DNA of 64,000 nucleotides from an uncultured candidatus Porisulfidus sp. (GTDB lineage Bacteria > Pseudomonadota > Gammaproteobacteria > Poriferisulfidales > Poriferisulfidaceae), in assembly GCA_965116025.1 (NCBI GenBank), contig OZ220480.1:1951447-2015446 (forward strand), in the 5' to 3' direction. A program made the position numbers and the translations under genes. Within the stretch, counting starts at the first letter, position 1, and the number at the start of each line of letters is the position of its first letter. Below the pieces are notes generated by a model. It worked only from the letters and a program-made list of their open reading frames with translations, ran no database searches and had not been told where the DNA came from. Below, piece after piece: positions 1 to 43,975 of the stretch.

Positions 1-2
1 GA

Positions 3-1709
3 CTTATCTCTGCCGCAATCAGCCGATGTGCAACCCACTGGTCGTCTGGAACAATGTGGATACAGGACCTCGAAGCTGTAGCAAATATATTTGGCCGACA
101 AGCATTACCTATCGTTTGGGATTTTGCAGAAGCATGCGGTTTCGGCGACGGTGGAGCGACTTTAGATGGACAAGTTAGCTGGATTGCCAAAGTGGCGGGG
201 CAACTTCCCATTCGAAAAGCAGCAAACATACAAGCTTCAGATGCCGCTGACTACCCACTCCCGGATCAAAGCGCAACTATCTGGTTTACGGATCCACCTT
301 ATTACGATGCCGTTCCGTATGCCGACTTATCCGATTTTTTTATGGTTTGGCTAAAGCGCGGTCTGCCCAATCACCCTCTCTTGCGTGACCCCTACGATCC
401 AAACAACCCTCTTACGCCCAAGGACCGTGAAGCAGTACAGGACGAAACAAAGAAAAATGATGGTCGCTCCAAAGATCGTTCATGGTTCGAGGAAACTATG
501 GCGAAAGCGTTCACCGAGGGAAGGCGCGTTCTTACCAAGGATGGTGTTGGTTCTGTCGTATTCGCCCACAAGACCACCGAAGGATGGGAAGCACTGCTCT
601 CGGGCATGATCCAAGGCGGCTGGACCATCACAGGTTCTTGGCCAATTGCGACCGAACGAGCTGCCCGAATGCGTGCCCATGACTCGGCTGCCCTCGCTAC
701 CAGTATCCACCTCATTTGCCGCCCGCGCTCGAGTGATGCTCTAGTCGGTGAATGGGCTGAAGTGCTTCGCGAACTTCCCTTACGGGTTTCCAAATGGATG
801 GATCGACTTCAAGGGGAAGGTGTTCGTGGAGCAGACCTTGTCTTCGCATGTATCGGGCCTGCAATTGAGATTTTCAGTCGCTACCAGACTGTCGAGACCG
901 CGGACGGTCGGAGTGTCGGCCTCCCAGAATATTTAGAGAAAGTCTGGGAAGTCGTAGGGCGTGCAGCACTTGAACAAGTGCTTGGCGTGACTGAAGCTAC
1001 CGCCCGCAGCGGCATGGCTGGCGCGCTGGAGGAAGATGCTCGCTTGACCGCCTTGTTTCTATGGACTCTCCAGAGTACTGAAGAATTTCGAATGGGGAAT
1101 GATCGAGAGGGTTCCGTTGCCAGCCATCCAGCGGTAACCGAAAATGCTACGCCTAAGGAGTTAGATGGAAAAGATGAAGAAGCCGTCACCAAAGCAACAA
1201 TGAAAGGGTTTCACCTTCCCTTTGACGTAGTACGGCGTTTCTCTCAACCCATGGGCATTGATCTCGAACGTTGGACCGGAAGGATTATTAGCCAAGAAAA
1301 AGGCATTGTGTGGTTGCTTCCGATCACGGAACGGGTGAAATCACTCTTCGGAGACGAAGGTTCCGCAAGTGTTGCCGAATGGGTCGATAACCACCCGGCC
1401 GACGATACGCAAGCGGTCCTCTTTCCCGACCTTGATATACCTGCCTCGCCGGGACATCAACCAAGCAGAAATGCACAAGATACCGACCCTATTCTGCAAT
1501 CATCTGATGCCACAATACTTGACCGAATCCACGCTGCCATGTTGTTGCAAGTAGGCGGTTATGCAAATGCCTTGCGGACGTTGATCTTCCAAGAACAGGA
1601 ACGAGGACCAGATTTCTTGCATCTCGCAAACGCGCTTTCCGCGCTCTACCCACGCGGTAGCCGCGAGAAAAGAATCTTGGATGCCATGCTTCTAGCCGTA
1701 CCAAAGTGA
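3..1709 (+). CDS. DUF1156-family N6-adenine DNA methyltransferase, C-terminal part (5' end lies outside window)
   Basis: Reading frame is open from position 3 through the listed ATG at 54. DPPY methylase motif (FTDPPYYDAVPYADLSDFF) is present. Protein resembles the COG1743/DUF1156 methylases that pair with DUF499 ATPases. Lower GC than the rest of the window. Confidence 0.7.
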   Translation, partial: LISAAISRCATHWSSGTMWIQDLEAVANIFGRQALPIVWDFAEACGFGDGGATLDGQVSWIAKVAGQLPIRKAANIQASDAADYPLPDQSATIWFTDPPYYDAVPYADLSDFFMVWLKRGLPNHPLLRDPYDPNNPLTPKDREAVQDETKKNDGRSKDRSWFEETMAKAFTEGRRVLTKDGVGSVVFAHKTTEGWEALLSGMIQGGWTITGSWPIATERAARMRAHDSAALATSIHLICRPRSSDALVGEWAEVLRELPLRVSKWMDRLQGEGVRGADLVFACIGPAIEIFSRYQTVETADGRSVGLPEYLEKVWEVVGRAALEQVLGVTEATARSGMAGALEEDARLTALFLWTLQSTEEFRMGNDREGSVASHPAVTENATPKELDGKDEEAVTKATMKGFHLPFDVVRRFSQPMGIDLERWTGRIISQEKGIVWLLPITERVKSLFGDEGSASVAEWVDNHPADDTQAVLFPDLDIPASPGHQPSRNAQDTDPILQSSDATILDRIHAAMLLQVGGYANALRTLIFQEQERGPDFLHLANALSALYPRGSREKRILDAMLLAVPK

Positions 1710-1846
1710 CATCATGGAATCGAAAGCACGTCCGAAGGACAGAAAATCCTTGAATCTCTCTGGCTGGCAAGTCTTCCCTCGAACTAGCCATTTTCCGCTA
1801 CAGGTTTTACAATCTCACTCACGTTTTGAAACGCAAGGAGAACAAC

Positions 1847-2104
1847 ATGACGGAAGAAACCGAACTGCTGAGGCGAATCACTGTCCGGCCCGATATCTTT
1901 GGCGGCAAGCCGATCATACGCAATATGCGAATCGCGGTGGAACATGTCTTGGCCAATCTAGCGGCAGGAGAAACGGTTGAGGACCTGCTAGAAAACTATC
2001 CATTCCTTGAGCAGGAAGATATCCAAGCATGCTTGCTCTTCGCTCACCGCTCATTAGCTGGAGAACATGTACATGACCGCATCATCGATCAAAGAACTTC
2101 GTGA
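1847..2104 (+). CDS. DUF433-domain protein, antitoxin-like partner of DUF5615
   Basis: Sequence ...RPDIFGGKPIIRNMRIAVEHVLANLAAGETVEDLLENYPFLEQEDIQACLLF is typical of DUF433. An AAGGAG SD lies just upstream of the second in-frame ATG, so the start is placed at 1847 rather than 1826. Stop overlaps the start of the next gene (ATGA). Confidence 0.8.
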   Translation: MTEETELLRRITVRPDIFGGKPIIRNMRIAVEHVLANLAAGETVEDLLENYPFLEQEDIQACLLFAHRSLAGEHVHDRIIDQRTS

Positions 2105-2478
2105 AATTTCTCCTCGATATTTGCGCCACATCGCAAGTACTACGTTCATGCTTGGTAGAACTTGGGCATGATGTCTTATCCGCACGAGACTGTTTTTCCC
2201 ATGCATCAGACGAAGCGTTACTGGAATTCGCCTGCAGGGAAAGTCATGTGCTCATTACCGAGGACAAGGATTTCGGTGAGCTTGTCTTTCTGCATGGCTT
2301 GCCTCATCCATCTATTGTGCGGCTTGTCGGGATGACTCCGACAGAAAGGGCGGATGCTATGCGAAATCTGATTGAGTGCCATGCGGATGCCATACGCAAG
2401 AGCTCAATAATCGTGGTGACCAGAAAATGCGTGCGGATACGGTCGGCAAGAAACCTTGGGAGCGTCAACAATGGCTAG
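2101..2478 (+). CDS. DUF5615-domain protein, PIN-like toxin partner of DUF433
   Basis: MKFLLDICATSQVLRSCLVELGHDVLSARD...ITEDKDFGELVF matches the DUF5615 family consensus (MKFLLDENL...DKDFGELV). Translationally coupled to the upstream DUF433 gene. Confidence 0.8.
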   Translation: MKFLLDICATSQVLRSCLVELGHDVLSARDCFSHASDEALLEFACRESHVLITEDKDFGELVFLHGLPHPSIVRLVGMTPTERADAMRNLIECHADAIRKSSIIVVTRKCVRIRSARNLGSVNNG

Positions 2479-5239
2479 GAGCCCTTGGTACAAAGTCGTT
2501 ACGCCGCGATCAGAAGTGCGGGAAGGTCGCTCATTCAGCCCAGACGAGTTCGCGATTGCCCTTGAGCAGGTGGTCGCGGGAACCGCCCCCTTGGATTACC
2601 GTGACCCTGCGCAATTCTTCTCGCGAACATGTTTTACTCGCGCCTTCAAGGAACATGCTGGTATGGTGCTTCGCCGTCTTGCAGGCGAGACGCAAAACAC
2701 GTCCCCGGTGCTTACCCTCGTTACCCAGTTTGGCGGAGGAAAGACCCACACGCTCACTGCGCTCCACCATCTCGCCAATGCCGGCTCACGGGCCAAAAGC
2801 CTGCCCGGCGTATCTGATCTCCTGGCTGAAGCGGGAATCTCCAAGCCACCTGATGCGCGAGTTGGTGTCTTCGTAGGTAATGCGTGGGACCCCACCGAAG
2901 GGCGTGAAACACCATGGATTGACCTAGCCTACCAAATAGCTGGTAACAGAGGTGTCGCCGCGCTTGGATCGACCGCAAAAACAACTCCACCTGGAACCGA
3001 GTCGCTCGCCCGGGTCTTCGCTGCCGTGGATGCTCCCGTACTGCTGCTGTTTGACGAGGTTCTGAACTTCGTTAACCGGCATCGGGACAAGGCTGAAAGC
3101 TTCCATGCCTTCATACAGAACCTGGCGGTCGCCGTCACCGGAACCACTGAGACGGTCACCGTCATAAGCCTGCCACGAAGTCAGGTGGAGATGACCGATT
3201 GGGATCAGCAATGGCAAGATCGGATCACAAAAGTAGTGAGGCGCGTCGCGCGTGACCTCATCGCCAACGATGAAGCCGAAATTGGCGATGTCGTTCGCCG
3301 GCGCCTGTTTGAGAACCTCGGCGATGAGAAAATTCGAAAACAAGTCTCAAAAATCTATGCTGATTGGTGTTTTGAACGAACTGCTCGGCTTCCCTCTGAA
3401 TGGATGGCGACCGACAGTGCCCCGCCGGAAACCAAAGCGCGGGAGTTTCTGATGGGCCGTTTCGAAGCTTGCTATCCTTTCCATCCCTCGACTCTCTCAG
3501 TTTTCCGAAGAAAATGGAGTGCGCTCGCGCAATTCCAGCAAACCCGTGGTACGCTTGCGATGCTTGCCCAATGGGTATCTTGGGCCGCACGCCAACAATT
3601 TCAGCAAGCCCGAACGGAACAGCTGATCACGCTCGGGTCGGCACCACTGCATGTGCCCGAGTTTCGCGCTGTCGTGCTTGGGCAACTAGGTGAGCAACGG
3701 TTGGATGTGGCCATAGCCGCCGACCTAGCGAGTCCCACGGCGCATGCCCGAGCTCTAGATATCGATACTCGGGGACCAATCAGGGACATACATCAGCGGG
3801 TGGGAGCGGCCATTCTCTTCGAGTCTTCTGGAGGACAAGTAGACAAAGTGGCTCACTTGCCCGAACTGCGTTTCGCCCTTGGTGAACCCGAAATCGAAAC
3901 CACAACCATTGATAACGCTGCGGGGGCATTAGAAGCATCAGGGTTCTTCATCCGCAAAGTCGGAACGGATGGTTTCCGCATCCACCATCAAGCGACCTTG
4001 AAAAAAGTTGTTAACGACCGTCGTGCCACGCTTGACGAAGAAACAGAAATTCGGCCTGTAATTCGTAAATTAGTGGAAGAGGAATTCACCCGAGGTGCCA
4101 ATCTTCCGGTTATACCCTTCCCTGATGACGGCGCAACTATCCAAGATGCGCCACGTCTGATACTGGTCCTCGTCGACCCAGAAGCGGAATGGGAACTCGG
4201 TGGGAAAACAGCAAAAAAAATCGAACGATGGACCAAAGAGAGAGGAACTTCGCCAAGGCTGCATCCTGCGTCCTTGGTCTGGTGTGCCAAAAAACCAGGG
4301 CGGGAACTCAAGAATCGCGTCGAGATGTGGCTTGCTTGGCGACGAGTCTCTTTGGATGTCGCGGAAGGTGTGCTCGGGACGGAATTTGGTCGCGCTGATC
4401 AAAACGAATTGCAGTCCAAAGTCAGAGATGCCGAAAATGCCGCGAGAGACGAAGTATGGGCCAGCTATCGATTCGTCGCTCTCGCCGATGCCAGAGCCGA
4501 ATCCGGACTTAAAATGATTGATCTTGGAGCCGGGCATAGTAGCGCGAGTGAAACACTCTGCGGAAGGGTGTTAACCGCGCTCAAGACCGAAGCCCTGCTA
4601 AGTGAAACCATCGGTGCTGGTTACCTCGACCGGCATTGGCCACCAGCATTCAAGGAGACCGGCGCTTGGCCACTAACCAGCCTGCGGCAAAGCTTTCTCA
4701 ACGGCTCCCTGACTCGGCTCATTGATCCCGATACCGCCCTGCGGCAAAAGATCGTTGAATTCGTCGAGAAAGGAGATTTTGGGCTCGCTTCGGGAACACT
4801 GGCAAGCAGCCAATACGAACATCTATGGTACATGGAGCCAGTCGAGGCTGAGGAGGTCGCTTTCGAGAAAAATGTCTTCCTGTTAACCAAAGCACGAAGC
4901 GAGGAATTGCGAATGCCAGTAGCACCAGAGCCAAAGCCATATTCTGTAACGCCACCACCGTCCACACCTGATCCTGGCAGCGTGGATGAATTCGAATCAG
5001 AGACTAACATGTCTGATGAGCCTGTTCAATTACGTGTGCATGGAACCATACCCCCAGAACTGTGGAATCGCCTCGGCACAACGGTCATTCCAAAACTCCG
5101 CTCCGGTGATGAGCTGAAAACGCAAGTAGAAGTCAGCGTCAAAGTTGCCGCGCCCATGGCGGCAGCCTTACAGACGGATATCCAGCAAACCCTGACCGAG
5201 TTAAATCTTGATGGCCAAGTAAGTGTTGAGTGCTCTTGA
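2456..5239 (+). CDS. DUF499-family P-loop ATPase, BrxC/PglY-like defence ATPase
   Basis: 927-aa ORF with Walker A TQFGGGKTHTL. Large ATPase adjacent to the DUF1156 methylase, a conserved defence-island pairing (COG1483/COG1743). Lower-GC region. Confidence 0.75.
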   Translation: MGASTMARSPWYKVVTPRSEVREGRSFSPDEFAIALEQVVAGTAPLDYRDPAQFFSRTCFTRAFKEHAGMVLRRLAGETQNTSPVLTLVTQFGGGKTHTLTALHHLANAGSRAKSLPGVSDLLAEAGISKPPDARVGVFVGNAWDPTEGRETPWIDLAYQIAGNRGVAALGSTAKTTPPGTESLARVFAAVDAPVLLLFDEVLNFVNRHRDKAESFHAFIQNLAVAVTGTTETVTVISLPRSQVEMTDWDQQWQDRITKVVRRVARDLIANDEAEIGDVVRRRLFENLGDEKIRKQVSKIYADWCFERTARLPSEWMATDSAPPETKAREFLMGRFEACYPFHPSTLSVFRRKWSALAQFQQTRGTLAMLAQWVSWAARQQFQQARTEQLITLGSAPLHVPEFRAVVLGQLGEQRLDVAIAADLASPTAHARALDIDTRGPIRDIHQRVGAAILFESSGGQVDKVAHLPELRFALGEPEIETTTIDNAAGALEASGFFIRKVGTDGFRIHHQATLKKVVNDRRATLDEETEIRPVIRKLVEEEFTRGANLPVIPFPDDGATIQDAPRLILVLVDPEAEWELGGKTAKKIERWTKERGTSPRLHPASLVWCAKKPGRELKNRVEMWLAWRRVSLDVAEGVLGTEFGRADQNELQSKVRDAENAARDEVWASYRFVALADARAESGLKMIDLGAGHSSASETLCGRVLTALKTEALLSETIGAGYLDRHWPPAFKETGAWPLTSLRQSFLNGSLTRLIDPDTALRQKIVEFVEKGDFGLASGTLASSQYEHLWYMEPVEAEEVAFEKNVFLLTKARSEELRMPVAPEPKPYSVTPPPSTPDPGSVDEFESETNMSDEPVQLRVHGTIPPELWNRLGTTVIPKLRSGDELKTQVEVSVKVAAPMAAALQTDIQQTLTELNLDGQVSVECS

Positions 5240-5740
5240 TCCAAGTAGATCACATAGGAAAAGGCTTTGAGCCAATCAACTCCCTTGAAGCCAATCAGCC
5301 ATCAACGTCGTGGGAACGAGTCTGCGTATTGCCAACCATATCGATGAACTGGCTGAGGCCGTCGTTCCCTGCCAATTTTCCTTCTCGTAGAGAATCGCGT
5401 CAAGCCTCGTATTTTCCACTCCGCACCCGCATCTCTCGGCACGTACCGGGCCGCCAGATCAGCAAAGGTCTGCGCCATCCGACCAACCCTCGCCCGATGA
5501 CTGCCGGGCTAACAATCAATATCGCAATCGTCGCCGCCGAAGAGCCAAGCGAGACCGAAAACAATAGCGAGAAATTTCCACATAGCGAAAGCGTTTATCC
5601 AAATAGCCGAATCAGAAGCAATCACTTCGCGAAGCGCGCCTCGTCTCCCAATGCCAGACCGTTTTTGGGCCTAACGCACTTGCATTTTACCAAACGCTCA
5701 TAATCCTTGTCGCGGCCAGCCTACCGCCAAGGAAAGAAAC

Positions 5741-5974
5741 ATGACGGAAACCGAACTTCTGAGCCACGTCACCTCGCGGCCCGATATTTTCGGCGGCAAG
5801 CCGATCATACGCGGCATGCGAATCGCGGTGGAGCATGTCTTGGCCAATCTGGCGGCGGGAGAGACGGCCAAGGATTTGCTGAAAGACTATCCATTCCTTG
5901 AGGCGGAAGATATCCAGGCATGCTTGCTCTTCGCCCAGCGCTCGCCGGCGCCCTCTCATCGCGCGAAGACCTGA
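5741..5974 (+). CDS. DUF433-domain protein, second copy, orphan (no DUF5615 partner)
   Basis: Protein is ~85% identical to the 1847..2104 product (MTETELLSHVTSRPDIFGGKPIIRGMRIAVEHVLANLAAGE...). Nucleotide direct repeat with 1846-2045. Its C-terminus diverges where the GC content rises. Confidence 0.65.
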   Translation: MTETELLSHVTSRPDIFGGKPIIRGMRIAVEHVLANLAAGETAKDLLKDYPFLEAEDIQACLLFAQRSPAPSHRAKT

Positions 5975-6378
5975 TCTGGATCGCGGAACGCCTTGAACTC
6001 CAGCATGTTGCCAGACGGGTCGCGCGCGAACGCGGTCGCCTGCTCCCCAGTCTCTCCCTGAAAGCGGACGGTCGGCTCCAACTCGAAGGCCACGCCGCAG
6101 GCGCGCATGCGATCCACCAGCTCCTCCCACCGCTCCCATTCCAGAATCAGCCCGAAATGGGGCACGGCGATCTCCTCCCCATCGACCGAATTACGGATCT
6201 CATCCCGGGCCGCGTCACGCCGATGCGCCGTGATCTGGTGTCCCATCAAGTCGAAATCGATCCACGTCTCGGACGACCGTCCGATGCGACACTGCAGCAC
6301 CCCGGCGTAAAAGGCTTCCGCCGAGGACAGATCATCGACCGCGATCGCCAGATGAAACCGCGGATGTCCCGCGCTCAT
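5956..6378 (-). CDS. VOC family protein (glyoxalase/bleomycin resistance/dioxygenase fold)
   Basis: 140-aa ORF with VOC-like sequence (HLAIAVDDLSSAEAFYAGVL...). Start overlaps the tsaB stop (ATGA-type coupling). Confidence 0.7.
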   Translation of the reverse strand: MSAGHPRFHLAIAVDDLSSAEAFYAGVLQCRIGRSSETWIDFDLMGHQITAHRRDAARDEIRNSVDGEEIAVPHFGLILEWERWEELVDRMRACGVAFELEPTVRFQGETGEQATAFARDPSGNMLEFKAFRDPDQVFAR

Positions 6379-7040
6379 CCGCGCACCGGATGCCGCAGGT
6401 AGGCCGGCTGGGCCTCTCCGAAACTCGCCGTCCGCCCCGCCTGAAAATCCCGCGACGCGAGATCCAGGACCGAACGCGCGTCAGGTCGCATTCCGGGCGC
6501 GACGGCCCGTCCCGCTTTGGCGATCTCGCGCATGCCGGGCAGGTCCCAGCCGGACCCCGCGCCCAGCCAGCCTCCAGGCAACGAGGACAGTCGCGCGCGA
6601 AGTTCGGATGGCGGCGACAGCGATTCCGGATGCAGCTCTGAAATCTCGTCGTCGTCCACCTCGAACATCGCCCAGTAAACCTCGTCCAAACGCGCGTCCA
6701 CCGCCACCAGCGCCGGCGAGATCCGGCGATCGCGCCATGCTCCTTGGGCCAACGCCGCCAGCGAGGACACCGGCAGCAGAGGAAGGCCACGGGCGACCGC
6801 CATCCCCTGCGCCAGCGCGGTGGCGACGCGCACGCCGGTGAACGTCCCCGGGCCACGACCGAACGCCACCGCGTCCAGATCCTCCGCCGTCGCGTCCGCC
6901 TCGCGGAGCAACTCGTCCACCTGTCCCAAGATATGCCGGGTATGCTCCCGCGGCGTGATCCGGTCGCGCGCAACGACGCTCCCGCGCGCGGCCAAGGCCA
7001 CCGAGCACAACTCGGTGGACGTCTCCAACGCCAGCGTCAC
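6375..7040 (-). CDS. tsaB: tRNA threonylcarbamoyladenosine biosynthesis protein TsaB
   Basis: LALETSTELCSVAL...GPGTFTGVRV motif set of TsaB/YeaZ. The six-frame ORF extends to 7148, but the in-frame GTG at 7040 gives the canonical N-terminus (MTLALETSTE) and abuts the dinG stop. Confidence 0.8.
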   Translation of the reverse strand: MTLALETSTELCSVALAARGSVVARDRITPREHTRHILGQVDELLREADATAEDLDAVAFGRGPGTFTGVRVATALAQGMAVARGLPLLPVSSLAALAQGAWRDRRISPALVAVDARLDEVYWAMFEVDDDEISELHPESLSPPSELRARLSSLPGGWLGAGSGWDLPGMREIAKAGRAVAPGMRPDARSVLDLASRDFQAGRTASFGEAQPAYLRHPVRG

Positions 7041-7051
7041 CAGGCCGTCGC

Positions 7052-8977
7052 TCACGCGACCCGCTCCCGCAAAAACGCCAGCGTCTGGTCCAGATCGGAA
7101 CTGACCGGCATGTCCGGCAGACTGGCCCGGAGCTGGCGACCGTACCATTTGCTTCGCAGACGCGGGTCGGCGATCACGGCCACGCCCTGATCCGTCACGC
7201 TACGGATCAGCCGGCCCACGCCTTGCTGCAGCATCAGCGCGGCCCGCGGCAGCTGCAACTGGCGGAACGGGTCGCCACCCGCCGCGCGAACCGCGTTCTC
7301 GCGGGCCCGGTAGAGCAGGTCCGTGTGCGAGGTGAACGGAATCTTGTCGATGATCACGCAACTGAGCGCCGGGCCGCGGATGTCCACGCCCTCCCAGAAT
7401 CCGATCGATCCGAGCAGCACCGCGTCCGAGCGCTCCGCGAAACGCTCCAGCAGCTTCCGCCGCGGCGCCTCACCTTGCCGGAGCAGCGCGCAGTCGATTC
7501 GCCCTTCCAACCACCGTCCGGCCTCCTCAAGCGCGCGCAGACTAGTGAACAGCAAGAACGTCCGGCCGCGCAATTGCTCGATCAACGGGAGCACGCTCTC
7601 GAGCATGGCCTCGTTGTAACCAGGTTCGCGCGGGTCCGGCAGATCTGGAGGAAGGTACAGCCGCGTCCGCTCCCGGAAATCGAATGGACTGTCGAGCCGC
7701 AAGGTCTCGGTGTTCTCGTCCAGGCCCAGCTTGCGCAGGAAGTAGTCGAAGTCTCCCCCGACCGACAGGGTCGCGGAGGTGAGCACCCAGCGCGGCGCGT
7801 ACCGCGCCCGCGCCTGCGCGAACATGTCGCTGATGTCGACCGGCGTCTGGTGCAAGGAGAATCCCTGCCGGGTGAGCGTCAAGTATTCGCAGCAGTCCGC
7901 CTCTCCGCTCGGCCATCCGTCCAGGTCCTCCACCGCTCGCGCGCAACGCTCGGCGAGCTTCTCCATTTCCGGGTCGTCCGCGCTTCGGCTTTCGAGCTCT
8001 TCGCGCAAGGCTTTCAGTTCCGTCAGCAACGGCTTCGCCCATTCGGGAAAGTCCGGCGGCGGCGGAACGCGCTCGCCCAGCGCCTCGCCGCTCAGCCGGG
8101 CGCGGGTCCGGTCGATCACCTGCCGCGTGGCGCGCCGCGTGGCGCGCGCGCCCGAGACCAGCGCCGGGCCCTCCTCCGGCGCACGACGACCCGCCGCCTC
8201 CACGTCGCGGCACAATTGCTGGATCTTGGCGGTGCCCAACTGGTGGCTCCAGAAGACTTCCAGCGCCTCAGCCAGCCGATGCGCCTCATCGAACACCAGC
8301 ACGTCGAACTCCGGCAGCAGCTCGCCGAGCGAGTCCTCGCGCAACGCGAGGTCCGCCGCGAACAGGTGGTGGTTGGCCACCACCAGATCGGCCCGCCTCG
8401 CCCGCTCGCGGGCCCGAACCACGAAGCAGTCCTCGTAGTCTGGACACTTCTTCCCGAGGCAGTTCTCCAGCGTCGACGTGATGGCCGGGACGATCTCGTC
8501 GTCTTCCGGCAGGTCCATTTCCGCGAGATCGCCGTCGCGAGTCGTCTCCGTCCAGTTCCGCAGCGCTCGCGTTCGCTCGTCCTCGCCGCGTCCCAAAGTT
8601 CCGTCCACGTGAATTCGGTAGCGATGAAGGCACAGATAGTTGGCGCGACCTTTCAACAAGCATACCCTGGGGGCGGCGCCGTCGGCCGCCCGAAGCGCGA
8701 CCGGAAGATCCTTCTGAAACAACTGGTCTTGCAGGTGGCGGGTGCCCGTGGCGATCAAGGTCTTGCGCCCGAACGCCAGCGCGGGCATCAGATAGGCGAG
8801 CGTCTTGCCGACCCCGGTGCCGGCCTCCACGGCCAGCGCGCGCTCCCTGCGCATCGCTCCCCACACGGCCATGGCCATATCCTCCTGCTGCGCGCGCGGA
8901 TGGTAGTCGAGAATCTCCCGAGCCATCCGCCCATCCTCGCCGAAGCAAGCCTCCGCGTCGAACTCCCGCGTCGACAC
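7052..8977 (-). CDS. dinG: ATP-dependent DNA helicase DinG/YoaA family
   Basis: 641-aa ORF with helicase motifs (VEAGTGVGKTLAYL, DEAH-like VLVFDEAHRL) and a C-terminal helicase domain. Confidence 0.85.
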   Translation of the reverse strand: MSTREFDAEACFGEDGRMAREILDYHPRAQQEDMAMAVWGAMRRERALAVEAGTGVGKTLAYLMPALAFGRKTLIATGTRHLQDQLFQKDLPVALRAADGAAPRVCLLKGRANYLCLHRYRIHVDGTLGRGEDERTRALRNWTETTRDGDLAEMDLPEDDEIVPAITSTLENCLGKKCPDYEDCFVVRARERARRADLVVANHHLFAADLALREDSLGELLPEFDVLVFDEAHRLAEALEVFWSHQLGTAKIQQLCRDVEAAGRRAPEEGPALVSGARATRRATRQVIDRTRARLSGEALGERVPPPPDFPEWAKPLLTELKALREELESRSADDPEMEKLAERCARAVEDLDGWPSGEADCCEYLTLTRQGFSLHQTPVDISDMFAQARARYAPRWVLTSATLSVGGDFDYFLRKLGLDENTETLRLDSPFDFRERTRLYLPPDLPDPREPGYNEAMLESVLPLIEQLRGRTFLLFTSLRALEEAGRWLEGRIDCALLRQGEAPRRKLLERFAERSDAVLLGSIGFWEGVDIRGPALSCVIIDKIPFTSHTDLLYRARENAVRAAGGDPFRQLQLPRAALMLQQGVGRLIRSVTDQGVAVIADPRLRSKWYGRQLRASLPDMPVSSDLDQTLAFLRERVA

Positions 8978-8979
8978 GG

Positions 8980-9456
8980 TCAGTCGATGTCCTCGAGCAA
9001 CGCCACGGCATGCGCGGCGACGCCCTCGCCCCGACCCAGCGCGCCGAGGCCCTCATGCGTAGTCGCCTTGAGGTTGACCCGCTCCTCGTCGATCCGCAAC
9101 AGACGCGCCAAGGACCGGAGCATGGTCTCGCGGTGCGGAGCGAGACGCGGAGCCTGCGCGATCACCGTGACGTCGACGTTGGAGACGCGCAACCCGCGCG
9201 CGTGGATCTTCCGCAACACGTCGCGCAGCAAGTCGCCGCTGGCGGCATCGCGGTAGCGGGGATCGTGGTCTGGAAAGTGCTGGCCGATATCGCCAAGTCC
9301 AGCCGCCCCCAGCAAAGCGTCCATCAGCGCATGCAGCGCCACGTCGCCATCGGAGTGCGCCACCACCGCGCGGTCGTGCGCGACGCGCTCGCCACAGATC
9401 CAGAGACCGTCTCCGGCAGTCAGGGCATGAACGTCATAGCCGTGTCCAATACGCAT
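8980..9456 (-). CDS. ispF: 2-C-methyl-D-erythritol 2,4-cyclodiphosphate synthase
   Basis: MRIGHGYDVHAL...HSDGDVALHAL...DIG is the IspF signature. Confidence 0.9.
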   Translation of the reverse strand: MRIGHGYDVHALTAGDGLWICGERVAHDRAVVAHSDGDVALHALMDALLGAAGLGDIGQHFPDHDPRYRDAASGDLLRDVLRKIHARGLRVSNVDVTVIAQAPRLAPHRETMLRSLARLLRIDEERVNLKATTHEGLGALGRGEGVAAHAVALLEDID

Positions 9457-10147
9457 GATCCGGATCCTGTCGCAAAATCGCTTCCGCCCGGGCGAGGTCC
9501 CCGGGCCACGTCACCTTAATATTATCCTCGCGCCCGACGACCAACCGCGGGAAGCGGCCGCAATGCTCCATCGCCCGCGACTCGTCGGTGATCTCGACGC
9601 CATCGTCCAACGCCGCGCGCAGGCATCGACTCAGCTCCTCCATCTCGAACAGTTGCGGCGTCTGCGCTCGCCACAGGCCACGCCGATCCTCGCTCGCGGT
9701 GACCCTCCCCTCCTCGGCGCGCTTGAGGCTGTCCGTCACCGGAACCGCGAGCAGAGCTCCGGGCGCGTCGGCCTCGCGCAGCAATCTCTCGACGTCCGAG
9801 CGCCACACGCACGGGCGCGCGACGTCGTGCACCAGCGCCCAAGCCCGATTCCCGACGCGCTCGAGCATGGCTTCCAGCCCGCGCAACACGGTCTCCGCGC
9901 GGCTCGCGCCTCCAGACATCTCCCGGAACTCCACCTCCGGCGGCAATGGCGGAGGAGCGCCGCCGAGCGCGGACTCCGGGAGGAGCAGAGTAACGCTGCG
10001 CACCATCGGGGCGCACATCGCCAGCGGCCGGAGCGCGTAGTCCAGAATTCGCCGCGTCCCGAGCGGCGCGTTCCACTTGGCCCCGCCGAAGCGCTCGCCT
10101 CGACCGCCTCCCGCCAAGATCGCGTGCACCTCCCGCGCGTCGTCCAT
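9434..10147 (-). CDS. ispD: 2-C-methyl-D-erythritol 4-phosphate cytidylyltransferase
   Basis: The C-terminal 237 aa of the 669-aa track ORF (from MDDAREVHAILAGGGRGERFG) match IspD. An ATG at 10147 was verified in the sequence. The upstream extension of the ORF overlaps ftsB and eno in another frame and is an artefact. Confidence 0.85.
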   Translation of the reverse strand: MDDAREVHAILAGGGRGERFGGAKWNAPLGTRRILDYALRPLAMCAPMVRSVTLLLPESALGGAPPPLPPEVEFREMSGGASRAETVLRGLEAMLERVGNRAWALVHDVARPCVWRSDVERLLREADAPGALLAVPVTDSLKRAEEGRVTASEDRRGLWRAQTPQLFEMEELSRCLRAALDDGVEITDESRAMEHCGRFPRLVVGREDNIKVTWPGDLARAEAILRQDPDHAYWTRL

Positions 10148-33900: not shown

Positions 33901-34610
33901 GTGTGCCGCACGGTGGCCGCGTCCGAACCGGAAATGGCGGTCCAGCCGCCCCAGCCGGCGGCGCCCTTCTTCCGCCGCACCTGATACCGCGTGATCGAAT
34001 CGTCGTCCGGATCGGTCCACGACAGCGTCACCCGCGTGTCGCCCGCCTCCGCCAACAACCCCGTCGGGGTGGCGGGGACGGCGGTGGTGCCGTCGTCGTT
34101 GTCAGTGATGGTGAGGATCAGCGTGTTGCTGTTCTGCGTCCAGCCATCCGAACGTGCCAGCGAGTTAGGGACAAGCCTTAAAGCGACGGTTTCCCCGGTC
34201 CCTTCATCAGCTGTGTCGCCCAGAATGCCAATCGCGAAACTTCCATTCGTCCCAATGTTAACATTTACGAATGCGTTGTCGCTGAAGACGCCGGGATAAC
34301 AGATATCCGCACCGCTGGACGGAGCGCTGCAAGAGGTCGTGCCAACATTGGTGTTGTCGGTTGCCGTGCTGCTGCCAGCAACAAACTCAACGTTAAACCC
34401 CACTCTAGTTGGCGTGCCCTCCCCGAGCTTGACGTTGATCGTCACATCCTTCTTGCCGGAATCGCCCTCGGTGATCGTGGTTGACGCGGTCGATATGGCG
34501 ACGGTCTTGGCGGCGCGGGCGTTTTCGGGCGCGGCGAGCGCCACCAGCGCGAAGAAGACGAAGGCGAGTCCCGCCGTCAGGCGGCGAGCGACTCTCCCGA
34601 GACCACCCAC
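30912..34610 (-). CDS. Large autotransporter adhesin-like protein with FN3 and Calx/cadherin-like repeats and a C-terminal beta-barrel
   Basis: Track ORF is 1279 aa (30912..34751). A signal peptide (GLGRVARRLTAGLAFVFFALVALAAPENARA) begins at the in-frame GTG at 34610. Repeated FN3-like modules (…YQVRRKKG…, …WGYQYKPDGG…, …WGYQYKSSGG…). C-terminal ~280 aa beta-domain ends in aromatic W (…RASLQW). The start is ambiguous because of the upstream poly-C tract. Confidence 0.75.
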   Translation of the reverse strand: MGGLGRVARRLTAGLAFVFFALVALAAPENARAAKTVAISTASTTITEGDSGKKDVTINVKLGEGTPTRVGFNVEFVAGSSTATDNTNVGTTSCSAPSSGADICYPGVFSDNAFVNVNIGTNGSFAIGILGDTADEGTGETVALRLVPNSLARSDGWTQNSNTLILTITDNDDGTTAVPATPTGLLAEAGDTRVTLSWTDPDDDSITRYQVRRKKGAAGWGGWTAISGSDAATVRHTVTGLDNDVEYRFRIRARNSGGNGRQSAVVEATPSASAAVPKPELSAEAGYASVTLSWSALSGVTVASWGYQYKPDGGSWSGTKTIDDGSATSHTVSGLTVGTKYTFRLFARTGSGAQSVWSDQVKATPTNTVPKPVLTAAGSDASATLSWNALSGIPITSWGYQYKSSGGWSTTTTLTGGSRTSVKVTGLTNGTKYTFRLFAAVRPGVQSSWSDQVKATPMPLPGVTLKPMELELEEGDSGSYTVVLSSKPLAAVTVSVGGTTAEVTATPSRLTFTTADWSTAQTVTVTAVEEDDDTMTDPPTRLTHVATSRGYGSVSVGTVEVSVKEDDPGGTVAPTELTVVEGGSGSYTVVLHTKPSASVTVTVGGASGDVSAAPSSLTFTTATWNVPVTVTVSAAADEDAEAEVAVTLTHATAGGGYDDATLSDVSVSVSETTPILQLSADPSVTAEGEAIRLTVASDKAVTGMLTVRLRLSAREESGFDAEDVEGGLGPRDFQADFGAEAGMAGIVLIPTAGDQGSEGEEAYRVELLSGTGYAVGADALADGIVSDRLGAAARASRVNAAALPQALAAAVAQATGVIARRIELAASGVEPEALDLGAALASGAGADGAGLDWRAALSGTALATGLTGADGSRVASVWVRGALSSLDGSEDGVSWDGEVWSAHAGVDFRARPDVLAGVAASYAEGDLDTEADGVRGRHETRLASVRPYMAWLLEDGSSLWASASYGRGKVRVREDGQATREADLRTRSASAGGWRTLSERSGAGGDVLRLALRGEGSLARARTDAEDGLEGLSVDASRVRLALEGSRERVLEDGGRLTPALEAGARYDGGDATDGAGAELGASVSYLDGTGRMSVELRTRALVAHEADRDEWSASARMSVTPEASGRGPSLRLSLGRGDAGSGLARLFAREGSSARLGEAEARTRLEAEVGQGLSGPWAGLATPYAGLSVEESGLALLRLGTRYRRGETLALALEAETGDESRIALRASLQW

Positions 34611-34630
34611 AGCCTCAGCACCCCATATAA

Positions 34631-34648
34631 GGGGGGGGGGGGGGGGGG
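34631..34648. repeat. Homopolymeric tract: 18 consecutive G (poly-C on the autotransporter coding strand)
   Basis: Directly read from the sequence: ataa + G18 + tatgag. Lies 20 nt upstream of the GTG start of the autotransporter, between TTGCCT (-35-like) and TTATAT (-10-like) hexamers. Confidence 0.9.
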
Positions 34649-34760
34649 TATGAGAGTTAGGCAAAGATTCCGCCTTAATCACAAACACTCGTCCGACCAA
34701 TCCAGTGCTGATCGCCGACATTATAGCCCAGCTCGTCAGGCGCGCCATCATTAACGAGAA

Positions 34761-37700
34761 TCACTTCGCATGATCAGGGAGGATAGCCCTCACAAGAGCG
34801 TCGATTTCCGTCAACGTCCCGTCCTCCGCGAGTCGTGCGCGAACGCGCCGGGAGGCGGCGACTTGACCAGCGGGCAGATCCATCGCCCCTACAATCTTTT
34901 CCGCCCTCGCCGCCAACGCGGCTAGCCGCTGATGAGCGCCATCACCCGCCTTCCAAGCCGGTATCGGTACCGCCCGCCACGGATTCTTGTGAAAGTCGCG
35001 ACCACTGGCGCGACAGGCTCGAAACGCTTCTTCGAGAGCGGGCGCGTTCAATACGGCCACTAGATAACGCGCTTCCGCGACGGTTCCCATAGAACGCCGA
35101 TATAGCTTTGAGTCCACTACGGCCATTCCCTCCGGGACACGCGCGGCGCGCATCACGTCTCCAGATGCCGGATAAACTACCAAATAGGCGCGACGAGCCT
35201 TCAGTGGCAACTGGGCTGACAACTTGCCGCCATAGTCGATTTGCTTGATCAGGGTGCTCGGGGTGTTGCTGCCAAGCCCTCTGCGCTCGCGGTAAAGATC
35301 ATCAAGCTCGGTCCAGAACGCTACCTTTCGAGCGACTTCCGTAGATAGCAACTTTCCGTCTTCGCCACGGGGAATTATGACCGTCTCCAGCCCTTCGGGC
35401 GAAAACCCGAACGGGAGCAACAGCTTTGATGTCAGCAACGGGGTCAGCCAGCGTTCCGGGACCTCGCCCTCGCGAGGCCGAACCATATCCCACGGGGGAT
35501 GGTCCGAACGCGCCATGGTCACGGTCCTAGCTTCGGACCGGGCCCCGGCCCCCACCATCGCCGTCTTCGTTAATACTTTTGGAACGACTGTGGCACCCTG
35601 CCGCCAGTGGTCGGCCGCATAGTCAGATGGTAATCGCGGGATCTGTCGGGGCGCGACCCAGCGCAACAAAGCCCAAGTCTCGTCCAACGACGAGGACGCG
35701 CCAGGCGTGGCACCGACGCTCTCCGCTTTCAGCGTTTTTCCGCCAACATCGCCACCGGGAATGCCAGACACCCGCCGAATCTCGAAAAGCGCGCAACAAC
35801 GCCTCGCATCACCCCCGCCAAAGACTTTCACGTCTGACAAATCAAGGGCCTGGGCTAAAAGACCGACGTGCCAATCGCGAAACTTCCTCCAGTTCCCGGC
35901 GCGAATGGCGGCCGCCTTGGTCACCCATGCGGCGGGATCGGAACCTGGGTCGTTCAGATACGCCATGCGGGCATGGCGTATGAACAGTTGCGCGATGTCG
36001 AAATGCGGAGCCTGCTTCCCGCCTGTCCAGAGATCAAGATGGCCCGCCTGTTCATCTTTGCCGGCCATGCGCTCCAACGCGCGTTTTCTCTCGGGAACCT
36101 GGATTTTCGCCAGCTTGACCCAAGGCGGATTGGCGACGATGCGATCAACCTTGCGCCGCGCCAGCCGATCCGGACCAAGAACGTTGTTGATATACCAAGT
36201 CCAGACCGAGTTACCTTCTCTCTCGATCGCCTCCACGAGATTCTTGTGGCATTCAGCCACCATTTCGCGATTCCCTTCGTTATCAACCGCCAGGCCGATA
36301 TCGGCCGGCAACGCGCCGCCGCGCGCGGCGGCATCCACCATGCGACGGAGCATGTCGGGAAAGTCCGCGTGTTCCGTGAACGTCCTTGGCAAAACGATTT
36401 CATGTCCATACGGAGTCCGTATCAGGATTTCCCCATTACGCGGCTCGAACAGGGTGCGCTCGTCGGTCTGCCGCAACATCAGCGCGTCGCCTTGATAGAT
36501 CGACAGCGCCATGCTCGCGGCGGGCGGCGTGGCCGGCAACGCCCGCAACAACGTGGCGCGACTGAACTCCACGGCCACCGGATGAATGTCGATGCCATGC
36601 ACGAGCAGGCAGACGACCTCGGCTCTTTGTCCCGGTTGCAGGTCTCTCGCCGCCTCACAGGCCAAGATGCGCCTCGCGCAGTGGTAGAGAAACGTCCCCG
36701 AGCCACAGGTCGGGTCCAGAACGCCAACGCCATCCATCCGGTCACGACCGCGCGCCGTGATGAGCGCGGCGGTGACCGCTCGCTCGCACCACTGCTCATC
36801 CAGGACCTCGCCCACCATCAATTCGGCGAGCCAGTCCGGAGTGTACACTTCCCCGAAGTCGCGGCGGTCACCGCGATCCACGAAACGCTCGTAGAGCGGG
36901 CGTAGCACATCGCCTGCCGTCCGCCGCCATTCATAGGCATGCGCGCGGTCGAGCAAGTCCTGCGCCCAGACTCGCCCGTCCTCAATCTCGACGATCCATG
37001 CCGGAAATCCATCGCCCAAAATCTCAACAGGATTGGGCCGGGCGTTTGGGTTGAACAGCGTATGCGCCACGCCTCGGGCGAGGGCGACCAAGAAACAGTG
37101 GGCGGTGAACAGCCGGATTCGGGCCGCGTCGGTTTCCGGAGCCATGCCTGACCCTCGGAGCATGTCCAACCATAGCCGCATCTTGGTATCGGTAGCCCGC
37201 CGAACGCGCTCGCCTACTAGACTCGCATGCACCTCCCGCAAGTCTTCCAGAGACCCCGCGAAGAGCGGAACCGGGTCAGAAGGAATCCATGGCCTGCCAA
37301 CGGGCTCCACGTCAAGAATCGGTCCGACGCGAAGCACTAATTCGTCGCTAGTGCTCGGCCGAAAACTGTCGAGCACAAGTTCTGGCACGGTCTGGCGAGC
37401 ATGCGGAAACCGCCACGCATGCCAGACGCGGCCATCCGTCACGATACCAGTCCAAAAGAGATCCGGTTGCTCCTCCAGCGGCGACCGGTCAAGCTCGTCC
37501 TCCATCTCCGCGGTCAGATAGCGCTTGAGTTGCTCGAACGGAGTCTCGCGGATTTGCGCTCGGTGCGGATCGTCCGCCAGACCGGCAGTCTTGGTCTCAA
37601 TAAATACCCGCCGGTTCGGTAGGAAAATATCGGCCAAACCACCCCTCGTCCTGAAGGTCAGGAGATTCTCGATACCCAAGCAATCCAGAAGCCGCCCGAT

Positions 37701-38189
37701 ATCCTGCCGGACACGATCCTCTGGACGGCTTGGATTCGCGTCCAGCAATCTTCGCGCGGCGCGAATCGAGTCTCCACCGAGGTCGCGCGGCACGGAACTC
37801 ACGCGACGCCGCCCCAGCGCGCCTGTCGTTCTGCCTGTCCGGTCGCGCCGTGCGCGAGCGGGAGCGGACCGATCTCTCGGACGTTCGAGCTCATGGATTA
37901 ACGCTCTCTTGATGAGTTCAGAGAAAGCCGGGGAAGTTCCTGTGGAATGATAGCAGAAGAAGCCCCAGAGAAGACGAAGACGAGCCCATGGCATAGTTCG
38001 CAAGGTGGAATCCCGGGAAGACACGGCTCCACAATCCTGTTCGCGCGAGACTGCCGCCATACGCCCTCGGCAAACGGAGGCGATCAAGAGCGCATTTGGA
38101 GCCCGCACCGAAATTCCGGCAAGTTGCGCCGGGACGCATGGCCATCCACCGCAAAGAGACGAGTCAGGACATACGCCATCCTCGGCCAA
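34761..38189 (-). CDS. Type IIG restriction-modification enzyme (MmeI-like fused PD-ExK endonuclease / gamma-class N6-adenine methyltransferase / TRD)
   Basis: PD-ExK-like segment near the N-terminus (…DIFLPNRRVFIETK…). SAM-binding motif I VLDPTCGSGTFL and motif IV IVANPPWVK. Large single polypeptide (~1100 aa). The true start may be an internal Met. Lower GC than the core genome. Confidence 0.65.
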   Translation of the reverse strand: MAEDGVCPDSSLCGGWPCVPAQLAGISVRAPNALLIASVCRGRMAAVSREQDCGAVSSRDSTLRTMPWARLRLLWGFFCYHSTGTSPAFSELIKRALIHELERPRDRSAPARARRDRTGRTTGALGRRRVSSVPRDLGGDSIRAARRLLDANPSRPEDRVRQDIGRLLDCLGIENLLTFRTRGGLADIFLPNRRVFIETKTAGLADDPHRAQIRETPFEQLKRYLTAEMEDELDRSPLEEQPDLFWTGIVTDGRVWHAWRFPHARQTVPELVLDSFRPSTSDELVLRVGPILDVEPVGRPWIPSDPVPLFAGSLEDLREVHASLVGERVRRATDTKMRLWLDMLRGSGMAPETDAARIRLFTAHCFLVALARGVAHTLFNPNARPNPVEILGDGFPAWIVEIEDGRVWAQDLLDRAHAYEWRRTAGDVLRPLYERFVDRGDRRDFGEVYTPDWLAELMVGEVLDEQWCERAVTAALITARGRDRMDGVGVLDPTCGSGTFLYHCARRILACEAARDLQPGQRAEVVCLLVHGIDIHPVAVEFSRATLLRALPATPPAASMALSIYQGDALMLRQTDERTLFEPRNGEILIRTPYGHEIVLPRTFTEHADFPDMLRRMVDAAARGGALPADIGLAVDNEGNREMVAECHKNLVEAIEREGNSVWTWYINNVLGPDRLARRKVDRIVANPPWVKLAKIQVPERKRALERMAGKDEQAGHLDLWTGGKQAPHFDIAQLFIRHARMAYLNDPGSDPAAWVTKAAAIRAGNWRKFRDWHVGLLAQALDLSDVKVFGGGDARRCCALFEIRRVSGIPGGDVGGKTLKAESVGATPGASSSLDETWALLRWVAPRQIPRLPSDYAADHWRQGATVVPKVLTKTAMVGAGARSEARTVTMARSDHPPWDMVRPREGEVPERWLTPLLTSKLLLPFGFSPEGLETVIIPRGEDGKLLSTEVARKVAFWTELDDLYRERRGLGSNTPSTLIKQIDYGGKLSAQLPLKARRAYLVVYPASGDVMRAARVPEGMAVVDSKLYRRSMGTVAEARYLVAVLNAPALEEAFRACRASGRDFHKNPWRAVPIPAWKAGDGAHQRLAALAARAEKIVGAMDLPAGQVAASRRVRARLAEDGTLTEIDALVRAILPDHAK

Positions 38190-38432
38190 CGCATGACGCG
38201 AGTGGAAGATCTTCTGGAAGGTCTCTGCACCCGGCGGTCGCGAGAGTTGAAAGCCTGACAGAGACGAATATCCTGGAAAACGCCCGATGCCGCCTTGGAA
38301 ATCAGCGTCAGTGCATAGCGGATCGATTCCTTGCCGAGAATGGCGAGAGGGCTCGTGGTCAAAGTGAAAGTGACCGCTTTCGTCACGCCAATACCCCCGT
38401 CACGGTCACTCGCCCAAGACGCCAGTGGAAAA

Positions 38433-38461
38433 TTGACAGCGCTCCGGGAGAGGGTTATAGT
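38433..38461 (+). promoter_or_regulatory. Near-consensus sigma70 promoter (TTGACA-N17-TATAGT) for the small NHLP-like ORF
   Basis: ttgaca at 38433-38438, 17-nt spacer, tatagt at 38456-38461. Strong SD AGAGGA lies 6 nt before the ATG at 38499. An upstream inverted repeat GTGAC-N7-GTCAC (about 38380-38400) could be an operator. Confidence 0.5.
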
Positions 38462-38498
38462 TCCAATGAGATCGTGAACCTTCCTAACGAGAGGATTT

Positions 38499-38774
38499 AT
38501 GGGATCATTCGCGGAGGCGGCCATGCAGCGCGCGGAGGACATGCGTCGCCATCTTACTGAGAAAGCACTTGAGGACATCGAGTTTCGCAAGAAGCTCGTG
38601 GAAAACCCCAAAGGCGCCATCGCCGATGAATTTGGCGTTGAGGTGCCGGACAACTTCGAAATCAAGGTGCATGAGAGTGACATGCACACTCTTCACATCG
38701 CCCTGCCAGTTGGCCCGGAACTTGATGAAGAGCAACTCGAGATGATCGCCGCTGGCCTGTGCTGTTGCCTCTGA
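38499..38774 (+). CDS. NHLP (nitrile-hydratase-leader-peptide)-family RiPP precursor-like small protein with a C-terminal LCCCL core
   Basis: 91 aa. LVENPKGAIADEFGVEVPDNFEIKVHESDMHTLHIALPVGPELDEEQLEMIAAG follows the conserved NHLP leader pattern (NPK…GV…P…E…V.E…H.VLP…EL.EE.LE.vAgG). Ends in the tri-cysteine LCCCL. Consensus promoter and strong RBS. Confidence 0.6.
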   Translation: MGSFAEAAMQRAEDMRRHLTEKALEDIEFRKKLVENPKGAIADEFGVEVPDNFEIKVHESDMHTLHIALPVGPELDEEQLEMIAAGLCCCL

Positions 38775-39232
38775 TCCCGAAACGCTCGCCTGTCCTTGAG
38801 GCAAACGGACCGACATGGACTTCATTCTGACGAGACCAGCTACGCGAAATCAACTCCGCAGCGACAAAAACCCCGAAAGAATTATCGCTTGATCGACCCA
38901 ATGGCCAAACCCTTGGCTTTTGAGGTGACCATCGTTCGAACAACTTTTCTGCGCGATAAGAACGTATCGATCACTCGCGCTCTCGTATCTGGAGCCATCG
39001 CCAAGACATGCTTGGCCAACCCACCGGCGTGTGGTCTCGGTCAATTCCCTGCCCCAGCCTCCCGCCATTCGCGCTCGCCACGCGACTCACCGCATGGAAA
39101 AGATCTGAGAAGTGACCTCACTCCCGTAACGGGAGAAAAATCCGACTGATTCTCGCCAGACTCTCGAATGGCCAATAGCATCTCGTCGATAGCGTCGTAG
39201 CGAGATTTTCTGGTAGCCAGACGTGGATCCGA

Positions 39233-40324: not shown

Positions 40325-40345
40325 GACTCTCGCGCCAAACGAGAT

Positions 40346-41044: not shown

Positions 41045-41072
41045 GCGCTAATTGTACGCGGAGCTCCCCGAT

Positions 41073-41110
41073 CAAAAAAGAAACGCCCCCTCGAGAGGGG
41101 GCGTTTCTTG
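41073..41110 (-). terminator. Rho-independent terminator downstream of alkB
   Basis: Perfect GC-rich hairpin gaaacgccccctc/gagggggcgtttc followed on the minus strand by TTTTTT. Confidence 0.6.
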
Positions 41111-41130
41111 ACGAAATGAAGGATCGACGC

Positions 41131-43974: not shown

Positions 43975-43975
43975 C

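Follow-up and report, generated by a model that had tools for sequence, protein, structure and literature searches.

Toxin-antitoxin systems of the PIN-COG2442 class were predicted by Makarova et al. 2009 (PMC2701414), and one pair of this class, VapBC10 of Synechocystis, has been found experimentally to be toxic, neutralisable and autoregulated (PMC3834315). The defence system Hma consists of HmaA, HmaB (a methyltransferase) and HmaC (a DUF499 ATPase), with HmaA, a Swi2/Snf2 helicase-nuclease, being the effector shown to defend (PMC11232893). Hma has been renamed the Type-1 DUF499-centred BREX-related system, and PIN RNases are listed among the effectors embedded in BREX and BREX-related loci (PMC12839542), while insertions occur in about 66.5% of hma systems (PMC11232893). 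Here we describe a locus where the two kinds of system meet, at the start of a stretch of 64,000 nucleotides (nt) from an uncultured Candidatus Porisulfidus sp. (hereafter the window; position 1 is its first letter). A DUF433-DUF5615 gene pair (1847-2478) lies between hmaB and hmaC, and a second DUF433 gene (copy 2, 5741-5974) follows hmaC. We read the pair as a VapBC-like type II module of the PIN-COG2442 class, with predicted toxicity and neutralisation, which rides as cargo in the Hma operon, and we consider it probable that copy 2 is what is left of a second cassette, clipped where the island ends.

The antitoxin gene of the pair, DUF433 copy 1 (1847-2104, + strand), is full length and encodes 85 amino acids (aa), a length shared by 111 of 143 retrieved DUF433 relatives. 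The product matches Pfam PF04255 (DUF433; COG2442) with E=6.1e-24 and 84 bits against a cut-off of 23.6, and PDB entry 2GA1 with E=2e-5. The toxin gene (2101-2478, + strand) starts with GTG and encodes a PIN-like protein of 125 aa, which matches Pfam DUF5615 with E=1.4e-16 and 60.8 bits against 23.8, along with weak matches to PIN_10 and Mut7-C, the former below its cut-off. Residues D6, D37, D55 and D57 of the toxin are invariant in 7 homologues; a solved structure of a close DUF5615 toxin relative was not found. The antitoxin stop and the toxin GTG start share GTGA (2101-2104), and the same 4-nt overlap is present in L001, L002 and L165-L169 (the labels L001-L175 denote comparison stretches from other contigs). 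At the other end, the toxin stop (2476-2478) overlaps the hmaC start region at ATG 2471 by 8 nt. These overlaps agree with the first-pass annotation, which had described a translationally coupled pair between the methylase and the DUF499 ATPase, with the toxin 3' end running into the ATPase start. Given the translational link to hmaC, the module is probably on the same transcript as hmaC. Promoter and terminator sites were called by consensus scan only, and one promoter-like site, TAGCCA-17-TACAAT (1785-1813, + strand), lies in the 137-nt spacer between hmaB and copy 1, where it is a possible promoter of the toxin-antitoxin genes. The region 1714-1846 can be aligned with the upstream region (about 140 nt) of the homologous pair in L001, including TTTTACAAT.

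Like VapBC of the PIN-COG2442 class, the window pair has a small DUF433 winged-helix antitoxin gene upstream, an overlapping gene for a PIN-like nuclease downstream, and conserved acidic catalytic residues in the toxin. It differs in that the toxin belongs to the DUF5615 branch and not to the classical PF01850 PIN family, and in that translational coupling ties the pair to a defence operon, in which it precedes hmaC. VapB10 acts as an activator of its own operon.

An AlphaFold2 model of copy 1, built with 75 family members, has a predicted local distance difference test score (pLDDT) of 88. The model is folded to about residue 70, the last helix spanning residues 56-70, while pLDDT is low over the tail 71-85 (block means 69 and 52). 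The family tail (residues 70-85; consensus LAGEHVHDRIAVREAS) is nevertheless conserved to the same degree as the core, with a mean top-residue frequency of 0.82 as compared with 0.88 for residues 13-69. In type II antitoxins the part that binds the toxin is typically a tail of this kind, conserved yet disordered, and we infer that residues 70-85 would have this role in copy 1.

The pair is flanked by core genes of Hma. Upstream, hmaB (3-1709, + strand) encodes a DUF1156-type N6-adenine methyltransferase, of which the window holds the C-terminal 568 codons, the 5' end and the N-terminal DUF1156 domain lying off the window. These 568 residues match the PADLOC HmaB profile at positions 481-800 of 967 (E=1.2e-55) and NCBIfam DUF1156_antiphage with E=3.8e-21, which is below the curated cut-off because the protein is partial. 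Downstream, hmaC (2471-5239, + strand) encodes a DUF499 AAA+ ATPase that matches Pfam DUF499 and, over residues 9-817, PADLOC HmaC (E=3.4e-90), in agreement with the NCBIfam anti-phage DUF499 model. The mechanical open reading frame (ORF) begins at TTG 2456; a GGGAG ribosome-binding site lies 7 nt 5' of ATG 2471 and HmaC relatives align from residue 6-10, and ATG 2471 is the likely start. If hmaA is present, it lies upstream of window position 1. On these profile matches we assign the flanking genes to an Hma (Type-1 BREX-related) defence system.

To see how the gap between hmaB and hmaC is filled elsewhere, we used the best 80 of at least 555 HmaC relatives among 600 pattern-matching metagenome stretches listed, whose HmaC is 62-75% identical to that of the window; 66 of the 80 loci have both genes visible. 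The gap is 120 base pairs (bp) or less in 8 of these 66 loci, and 143-4998 bp with cargo in the other 58. The cargo includes PARIS-like AAA_15/AAA_21 + DUF4276 modules (10-13 loci), PDDEXK_3, DUF6978, DUF1828/1829, GGACT, HepT and GmrSD_N. Five gap ORFs carry DUF433 and four carry DUF5615. A DUF433-DUF5615 pair stands immediately 5' of hmaC in L091, L107 and L159. In L086 the pair follows hmaB and is separated from hmaC by about 1 kb, and in L098 a DUF5615-like gene is immediately 5' of hmaC. The conserved frame is thus hmaB-hmaC, and the toxin-antitoxin pair is one of many cargoes inserted into Hma. This contradicts the earlier proposal that the ATPase module had inserted into a pre-existing DUF433/DUF5615 locus, and the direction of insertion is hence corrected, the cassette having entered Hma. 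The reading is in accord with the published insertion frequency (PMC11232893) and with the embedded PIN RNases (PMC12839542).

The window shares with described Hma loci the published order of hmaB and hmaC and the presence of foreign genes between core genes, and PIN RNases are among the 'backup effectors' published for BREX and BREX-related loci. Unlike these, the window cargo is DUF433/DUF5615, a combination not named for Hma in the cited text searched, and the window HmaC is without an N-terminal HEPN fusion, the gene for a PIN-like RNase instead abutting its start.

Two features of the gaps were seen along the way. In several gaps the cargo genes are separated by short scars, consisting of hmaC residues 10-38, of the hmaB 3' end (residues 519/528-568), or of both (L124:3712-3907 and 4931-5080; L135:2639-2833 and 3857-4006; L086:5821-5943; L101:8843-9010; L131:9170-9292). 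This pattern suggests that cassettes arrive with pieces of former hma flanks, and it hints at cassette exchange by recombination between hma operons, a point that may deserve study of its own. Beside copy 2, no hmaB-3' or hmaC-5' scar was found in the window. Further, an ORF of about 324 aa that matches no Pfam family recurs in the gap of roughly 20 loci, is 53-68% identical among them and is typical of gaps of about 960-1100 bp (L085:9009-9974, L096:9012-9986, L133:9010-9984). This clade of Hma may thus have an accessory gene that has gone unrecognised.

Copy 2 makes a direct repeat with copy 1. The first repeat copy (1834-2052, + strand) takes in the ribosome-binding site, the start codon and codons 1-69 of DUF433 copy 1, and the second (5728-5943, + strand) comprises the same elements and the first 68 codons of copy 2. 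A repeat search of the window gave two segments, 1856-2052 against 5747-5943 (197 nt, 84%) and 1834-1855 against 5728-5749 (22 nt, 86%), the latter spanning the ribosome-binding site and start codon. Blastn merges these into 219 nt at 83.1% identity with one gap (E=1e-61), and no further blastn match within the 64-kb window was better than E=0.65. The gap is a single GAA codon, present in copy 1 and not in copy 2. The first-pass annotation had reported a repeat of about 85% over about 200 bp (1846-2045 and 5741-5940), with a shared start context and a 3-nt indel; apart from coordinates that were off by a few bases this stands, and the similarity is plainly at the nucleotide level and not confined to the protein. 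Upstream of the ribosome-binding sites the homology is not significant, as 156 of 500 shuffles equalled the local alignment score, and the repeat is therefore confined to the ribosome-binding site and coding sequence. At its other end the similarity stops at 5943/5944, coinciding with a step in G+C content (GC) from about 0.53-0.59 to 0.64-0.70, as had been noted before; to the left of roughly 5900 GC lies at about 0.50-0.59, to the right at 0.64-0.73. Since the similarity of copy 2 stops at a compositional boundary, it marks a junction scar.

The age of the repeat was judged from the divergence of the copies. Nucleotide identity between copy 1 and copy 2 is 84.3% over the 68 shared codons, and between copy 1 and the homologue in L001, from another organism (59% GC contig), it is 83.3%; other between-genome DUF433 pairs are 73-80% identical. 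Synonymous divergence (dS; Nei-Gojobori estimates, as for all dS and omega values here) is 0.47 between the two copies, 0.84 between copy 1 and L001, and 0.69 between copy 2 and L001. The longest exact run common to both copies is 21 nt. Third codon positions account for 19 of the 32 differences (P=0.002), an excess which indicates that both copies evolved as coding sequence. As the copies are no more alike than copy 1 and the L001 homologue, and given the dS of 0.47 and the short exact runs, the repeat is not a recent duplication and has the look of two diverged members of a conserved gene family. The idea that the repeat is a scar thus holds in part: it marks a junction at a compositional boundary, while a recent duplication or a recombination-active repeat does not fit the dS and the 21-nt run.

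The 85-aa DUF433 subfamily is highly conserved and very common, with 2461 matches at E<=1e-10. Relatives of copy 1 reach 91% protein identity; for copy 2, a search of 5.8 billion proteins gave none closer than 83%, which is about as close as copy 1. We also considered a later arrival of copy 1, for which the GC of third codon positions (0.59 against 0.74) and the direction of synonymous A/T-to-G/C changes (10 of 14) were both only suggestive (P about 0.1), and we did not keep this idea.

Copy 2 (5741-5974, + strand) is a 3'-truncated ORF of 77 aa, of which 68 codons are homologous to the family (Pfam DUF433, E=4e-23). Its last 9 codons (PAPSHRAKT) are non-homologous and unrelated to the family consensus, so that the conserved 16-residue tail is gone; they are read from the 15-nt junction and from the antisense of the 3' end of a glyoxalase gene. 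This gene begins, in antisense, within 15 nt of the end of the DUF433 homology, and neither DUF5615 nor any other ORF follows copy 2, in agreement with its earlier description as lacking a toxin partner. No second DUF5615 sequence was found anywhere else in the window. An antitoxin module would be recognised by an adjacent cognate toxin and by a full-length antitoxin with its C-terminal tail, and copy 2 has neither.

The coding sequence of copy 2 has changed as well. Among the 111 relatives of exactly 85 aa, position 10 is R in 111/111 and is H in copy 2 (R10H), which further carries I11V, V13S (S in 0/111), E45K (K in 0/111) and H67Q (Q in 1/111) at near-invariant sites. By comparison with L001, L002 and the family, most amino-acid changes fall on the copy 2 side. 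The ratio dN/dS (omega) is 0.21 between copies 1 and 2 and 0.05-0.07 among toxin-partnered copies. The loss of the tail together with changes at invariant or near-invariant positions argues against neutralisation of the toxin by copy 2. Copy 2 evolves under relaxed constraint and has most likely lost the ability to neutralise the toxin, and for the same reasons the anti-addiction or stabilising role proposed earlier for it is not supported.

Similar losses are seen at other loci. L170 has a full DUF433 gene and only residues 1-32 of the toxin. In L171-L174 (5227-5380) a deletion of about 250 bp has left DUF433 an orphan, with no more of the toxin than its C-terminus (about residues 73-124), and L175 (5255-5626) carries a whole DUF5615 toxin in the same DprA-DUF433 context. 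The five stretches L171-L175 represent polymorphism within the population of one metagenome series, and in them a 4-nt overlap joins the DprA stop to the start of DUF433. In L163 (4001-4622) and L164 (4001-4530) DUF433 loses family homology at residues 71-73 and there is no DUF5615; overlapping ORFs of 133 aa and 90 aa, with no Pfam match, stand in its place, perhaps as modules in which tail and toxin were swapped together. Wherever we looked, the family tail was found with DUF5615 or its remnant, and loss of the tail with no DUF5615 sequence. Judged from these loci, loss of the toxin with retention of the antitoxin is the recurrent and tolerated decay route of these cassettes. An orphan or degraded antitoxin after toxin loss is a general decay route of chromosomal type II toxin-antitoxin loci. 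Copy 2 resembles such relics in that its frame is kept, the toxin is gone, constraint is relaxed and it sits at an island edge, and the same process is seen in L170 and L171-L174. It differs in that it is itself clipped, at the boundary between folded domain and tail, and reads into the antisense of a host gene.

Whole operons seem to decay around the cassette too. In L001 (10605-10845) and L002 (10619-10741) DUF433-DUF5615 cassettes stand alone, followed by hmaC 5' remnants (residues 1-81 in L001 and 5-45 in L002) and, in L001, by a PARIS-like AAA_15 + DUF4276 pair after the remnant. These look like decayed Hma gaps of which only the cargo survives, and stand-alone cassettes with hmaC remnants would mean that the cassette outlives the decayed operon. 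L001 also has a distant DUF433 gene of 75 aa with a 105-aa partner (3406-3947) in a type I restriction-modification operon, between hsdS/Macro and hsdR, which is another antitoxin of this family embedded in a defence operon.

Taken together, we propose that the window starts inside a foreign, lower-GC defence island that would have settled at the glyoxalase/mutL variable spot of a Candidatus Porisulfidus-like gammaproteobacterium. The hmaB-hmaC gap, a known cargo hotspot, would hold a VapBC-type cassette of a winged-helix antitoxin and a PIN-like RNase toxin, in which the folded domain of the antitoxin is predicted to bind the operator and the conserved disordered tail to neutralise the toxin, and in which the overlaps of 4 nt and 8 nt would couple translation of antitoxin, toxin and hmaC. 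The cassette might lend the Hma island stability through addiction, serve as a reserve abortive effector, or do both. Copy 2 would come from an old cassette that belongs to the same subfamily but diverged separately, and would represent its 5' two-thirds; an illegitimate event that joined the island to the glyoxalase gene at its 3' end would have removed the tail and toxin of that cassette and further DNA downstream. Toxin-antitoxin cargo in a defence operon and an antitoxin relic are both ordinary in the sense that these kinds are already known. The finding is hence a modest one: one more toxin-antitoxin cassette riding in a defence operon, here coupled to hmaC, and an example of such cassettes decaying to antitoxin-only relics at island edges.

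Several observations weigh against parts of this proposal. The frame of copy 2 is intact, its ribosome-binding site is still there and the overall dN/dS is below 1, features with which some residual function, for example DNA binding, would be compatible. The two copies have a lower dS than the other pairs measured (0.69-0.84), while the distance of this value from that of copy 1 and L001 is only about 1.6 standard errors, and these values would suit an old duplication within the island as well as a separate acquisition. The toxin-binding role proposed for the tail draws on conservation, predicted disorder and co-loss with the toxin. For the spacer of about 490 bp that separates copy 2 from hmaC, neither a relative nor an RNA family was detected, and the window does not reach the left end of the island, hmaA or the mutL side.

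The intact 77-codon ORF with its AAGGAAAG ribosome-binding site suggests a reading in which copy 2 is a functional orphan, which would bind the operator or other DNA and regulate, or neutralise the toxin as an anti-addiction module. Its folded domain (residues 1-68) is essentially complete as judged by the model of copy 1, the omega of 0.21 is below 1, read-through transcription is possible as the + strand has no terminator-like site from hmaC to copy 2, many samples (L171-L174) retain a full-length DUF433 as an orphan, and VapB10 binds its own promoter (PMC3834315). Yet the conserved tail is replaced by the nine junction and antisense codons, R10H affects an invariant site along with changes at other strongly conserved ones, and omega is 3-4 times that of the partnered copies. 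Further, the scan found no sigma-70-like promoter on the + strand upstream of copy 2, where homology is lost, and none of the best 80 Hma loci has a second DUF433 copy downstream of hmaC. We therefore regard a functional orphan as unlikely. A related and rather improbable speculation is that the strongly conserved coding sequence of the DUF433 DNA-binding domain serves as a portable homology arm, and that recombination at this arm or just past it swaps tails, toxins and downstream defence genes such as hmaC, with copy 2 kept as a landing pad or tail-less regulator. Between the unrelated contigs compared, this sequence has 73-84% nucleotide identity, there are repeated cases of breaks at residues 68-73 (copy 2, L163, L164 and several other short or tail-variant database entries), and the hma-gap cassettes carry hmaB-3' and hmaC-5' scars.

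The direct repeats do flank the toxin, hmaC and the spacer, and the short hmaB 3'/hmaC 5' repeats between gap cassettes indicate that flank recombination does occur in hma operons, so that the two DUF433 copies could be taken for recombination sites, attL/attR-like or RecA excision arms, bracketing a mobile toxin-hmaC segment. This is very improbable, as the identity is only 84% with no exact run beyond 21 nt, the differences follow a coding pattern with third-position excess and no conserved core, and a screen of the ORFs of 1-6000 against Pfam gave no integrase, transposase or recombinase domain. Moreover, hmaB-hmaC is elsewhere the conserved frame and the cassette the variable part, and the right-hand copy is cut by host DNA without the rest of the target gene following. 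We also see very little chance that the junction 5944-5958 is an assembly artefact that joined island and host contigs and truncated copy 2 in silico. The abrupt GC step, the metagenome-derived source contig of 2.0 Mb, the absence of intergenic spacing and the convergent ORFs overlapping at the junction would fit such an artefact, but relatives independently have a variable region or foreign insert right after the same glyoxalase gene (for example L007, with 46% GC), and both DUF433 copies are recorded on one contig of 2,018,984 bp. The clipped relic is thus the reading we retain.

The setting of copy 2 is seen from the host side of the junction. The junction between island and host (5944-5958) measures at most 15 nt from the end of the DUF433 homology to the last conserved glyoxalase codon. 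The first host gene, of the glyoxalase/VOC family (5956-6378, - strand; Pfam Glyoxalase, E=1.8e-9), converges on copy 2 with an overlap of 19 nt, and its ORF ends at the conserved ...FAR, after which relatives continue for 1-12 variable residues. It has 76-81% aa identity in the Ca. Porisulfidus relatives L003-L011 and L016, and the adjacent DinG is 72-75% identical to that of Candidatus Porisulfidus and related sponge-associated gammaproteobacterial genomes. The relatives conserve the order IspF-DinG-TsaB-glyoxalase-[variable]-MutL-MiaA, with a glyoxalase-mutL gap of about 100 bp in L003 (13040-13125) and L016 and of about 860 bp in L005, L006 and L008. In L007 the gap (5450-10100) holds a 4.6-kb insert of 46% GC with genes for an AAA_21/SMC-like ATPase (905 aa), a Schlafen/AlbA_2-HATPase_c_4 protein and an HsdM_N fragment. 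DUF433 is absent beside the glyoxalase gene in 11 related genomes, and we therefore rejected copy 2 as an ancestral host gene and assign it to the foreign DNA; none of the related genomes carries two DUF433 genes at this site. These comparisons place the island at a variable spot beside the glyoxalase gene, where L007 has defence-type genes too. The glyoxalase/mutL site would be a defence hotspot in Ca. Porisulfidus-like sponge symbionts and may deserve attention in its own right.

The spacer separates hmaC from copy 2 (5240-5727; about 490 bp, GC about 0.55, strongly negative GC skew). It has no recognisable gene in six-frame reading, no Pfam match at E<=10 for its fragments and for a frameshift-joined reconstruction, no Rfam match and no tRNA. 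Against 82 related loci and the window itself, blastn and tblastx gave no match except for a weak tblastx hit at 59586-59696 (E=2e-4). A blastn search of plasmids left the spacer unmatched and hit only the DUF433 core, in Leptospira plasmids (79%), and a 58-aa minus-strand ORF in the spacer had no homologue among 1.8 billion representatives by exhaustive phmmer.

Further into the host sequence, the mechanical ORFs of TsaB (6375-7148, - strand) and DinG (7052-8977, - strand) overlap by 97 nt at 7052-7148, and an overlap of about 90 nt is also present in tblastn matches of relatives; either the overlap is conserved, or TsaB starts further downstream. Finally, GC in the window falls to 0.58-0.64 in 2-kb bins over 34001-51000, and to 0.63-0.64 at 24-30 kb, as compared with 0.66-0.72 in most host bins, and the former region may be another foreign or compositionally distinct segment.

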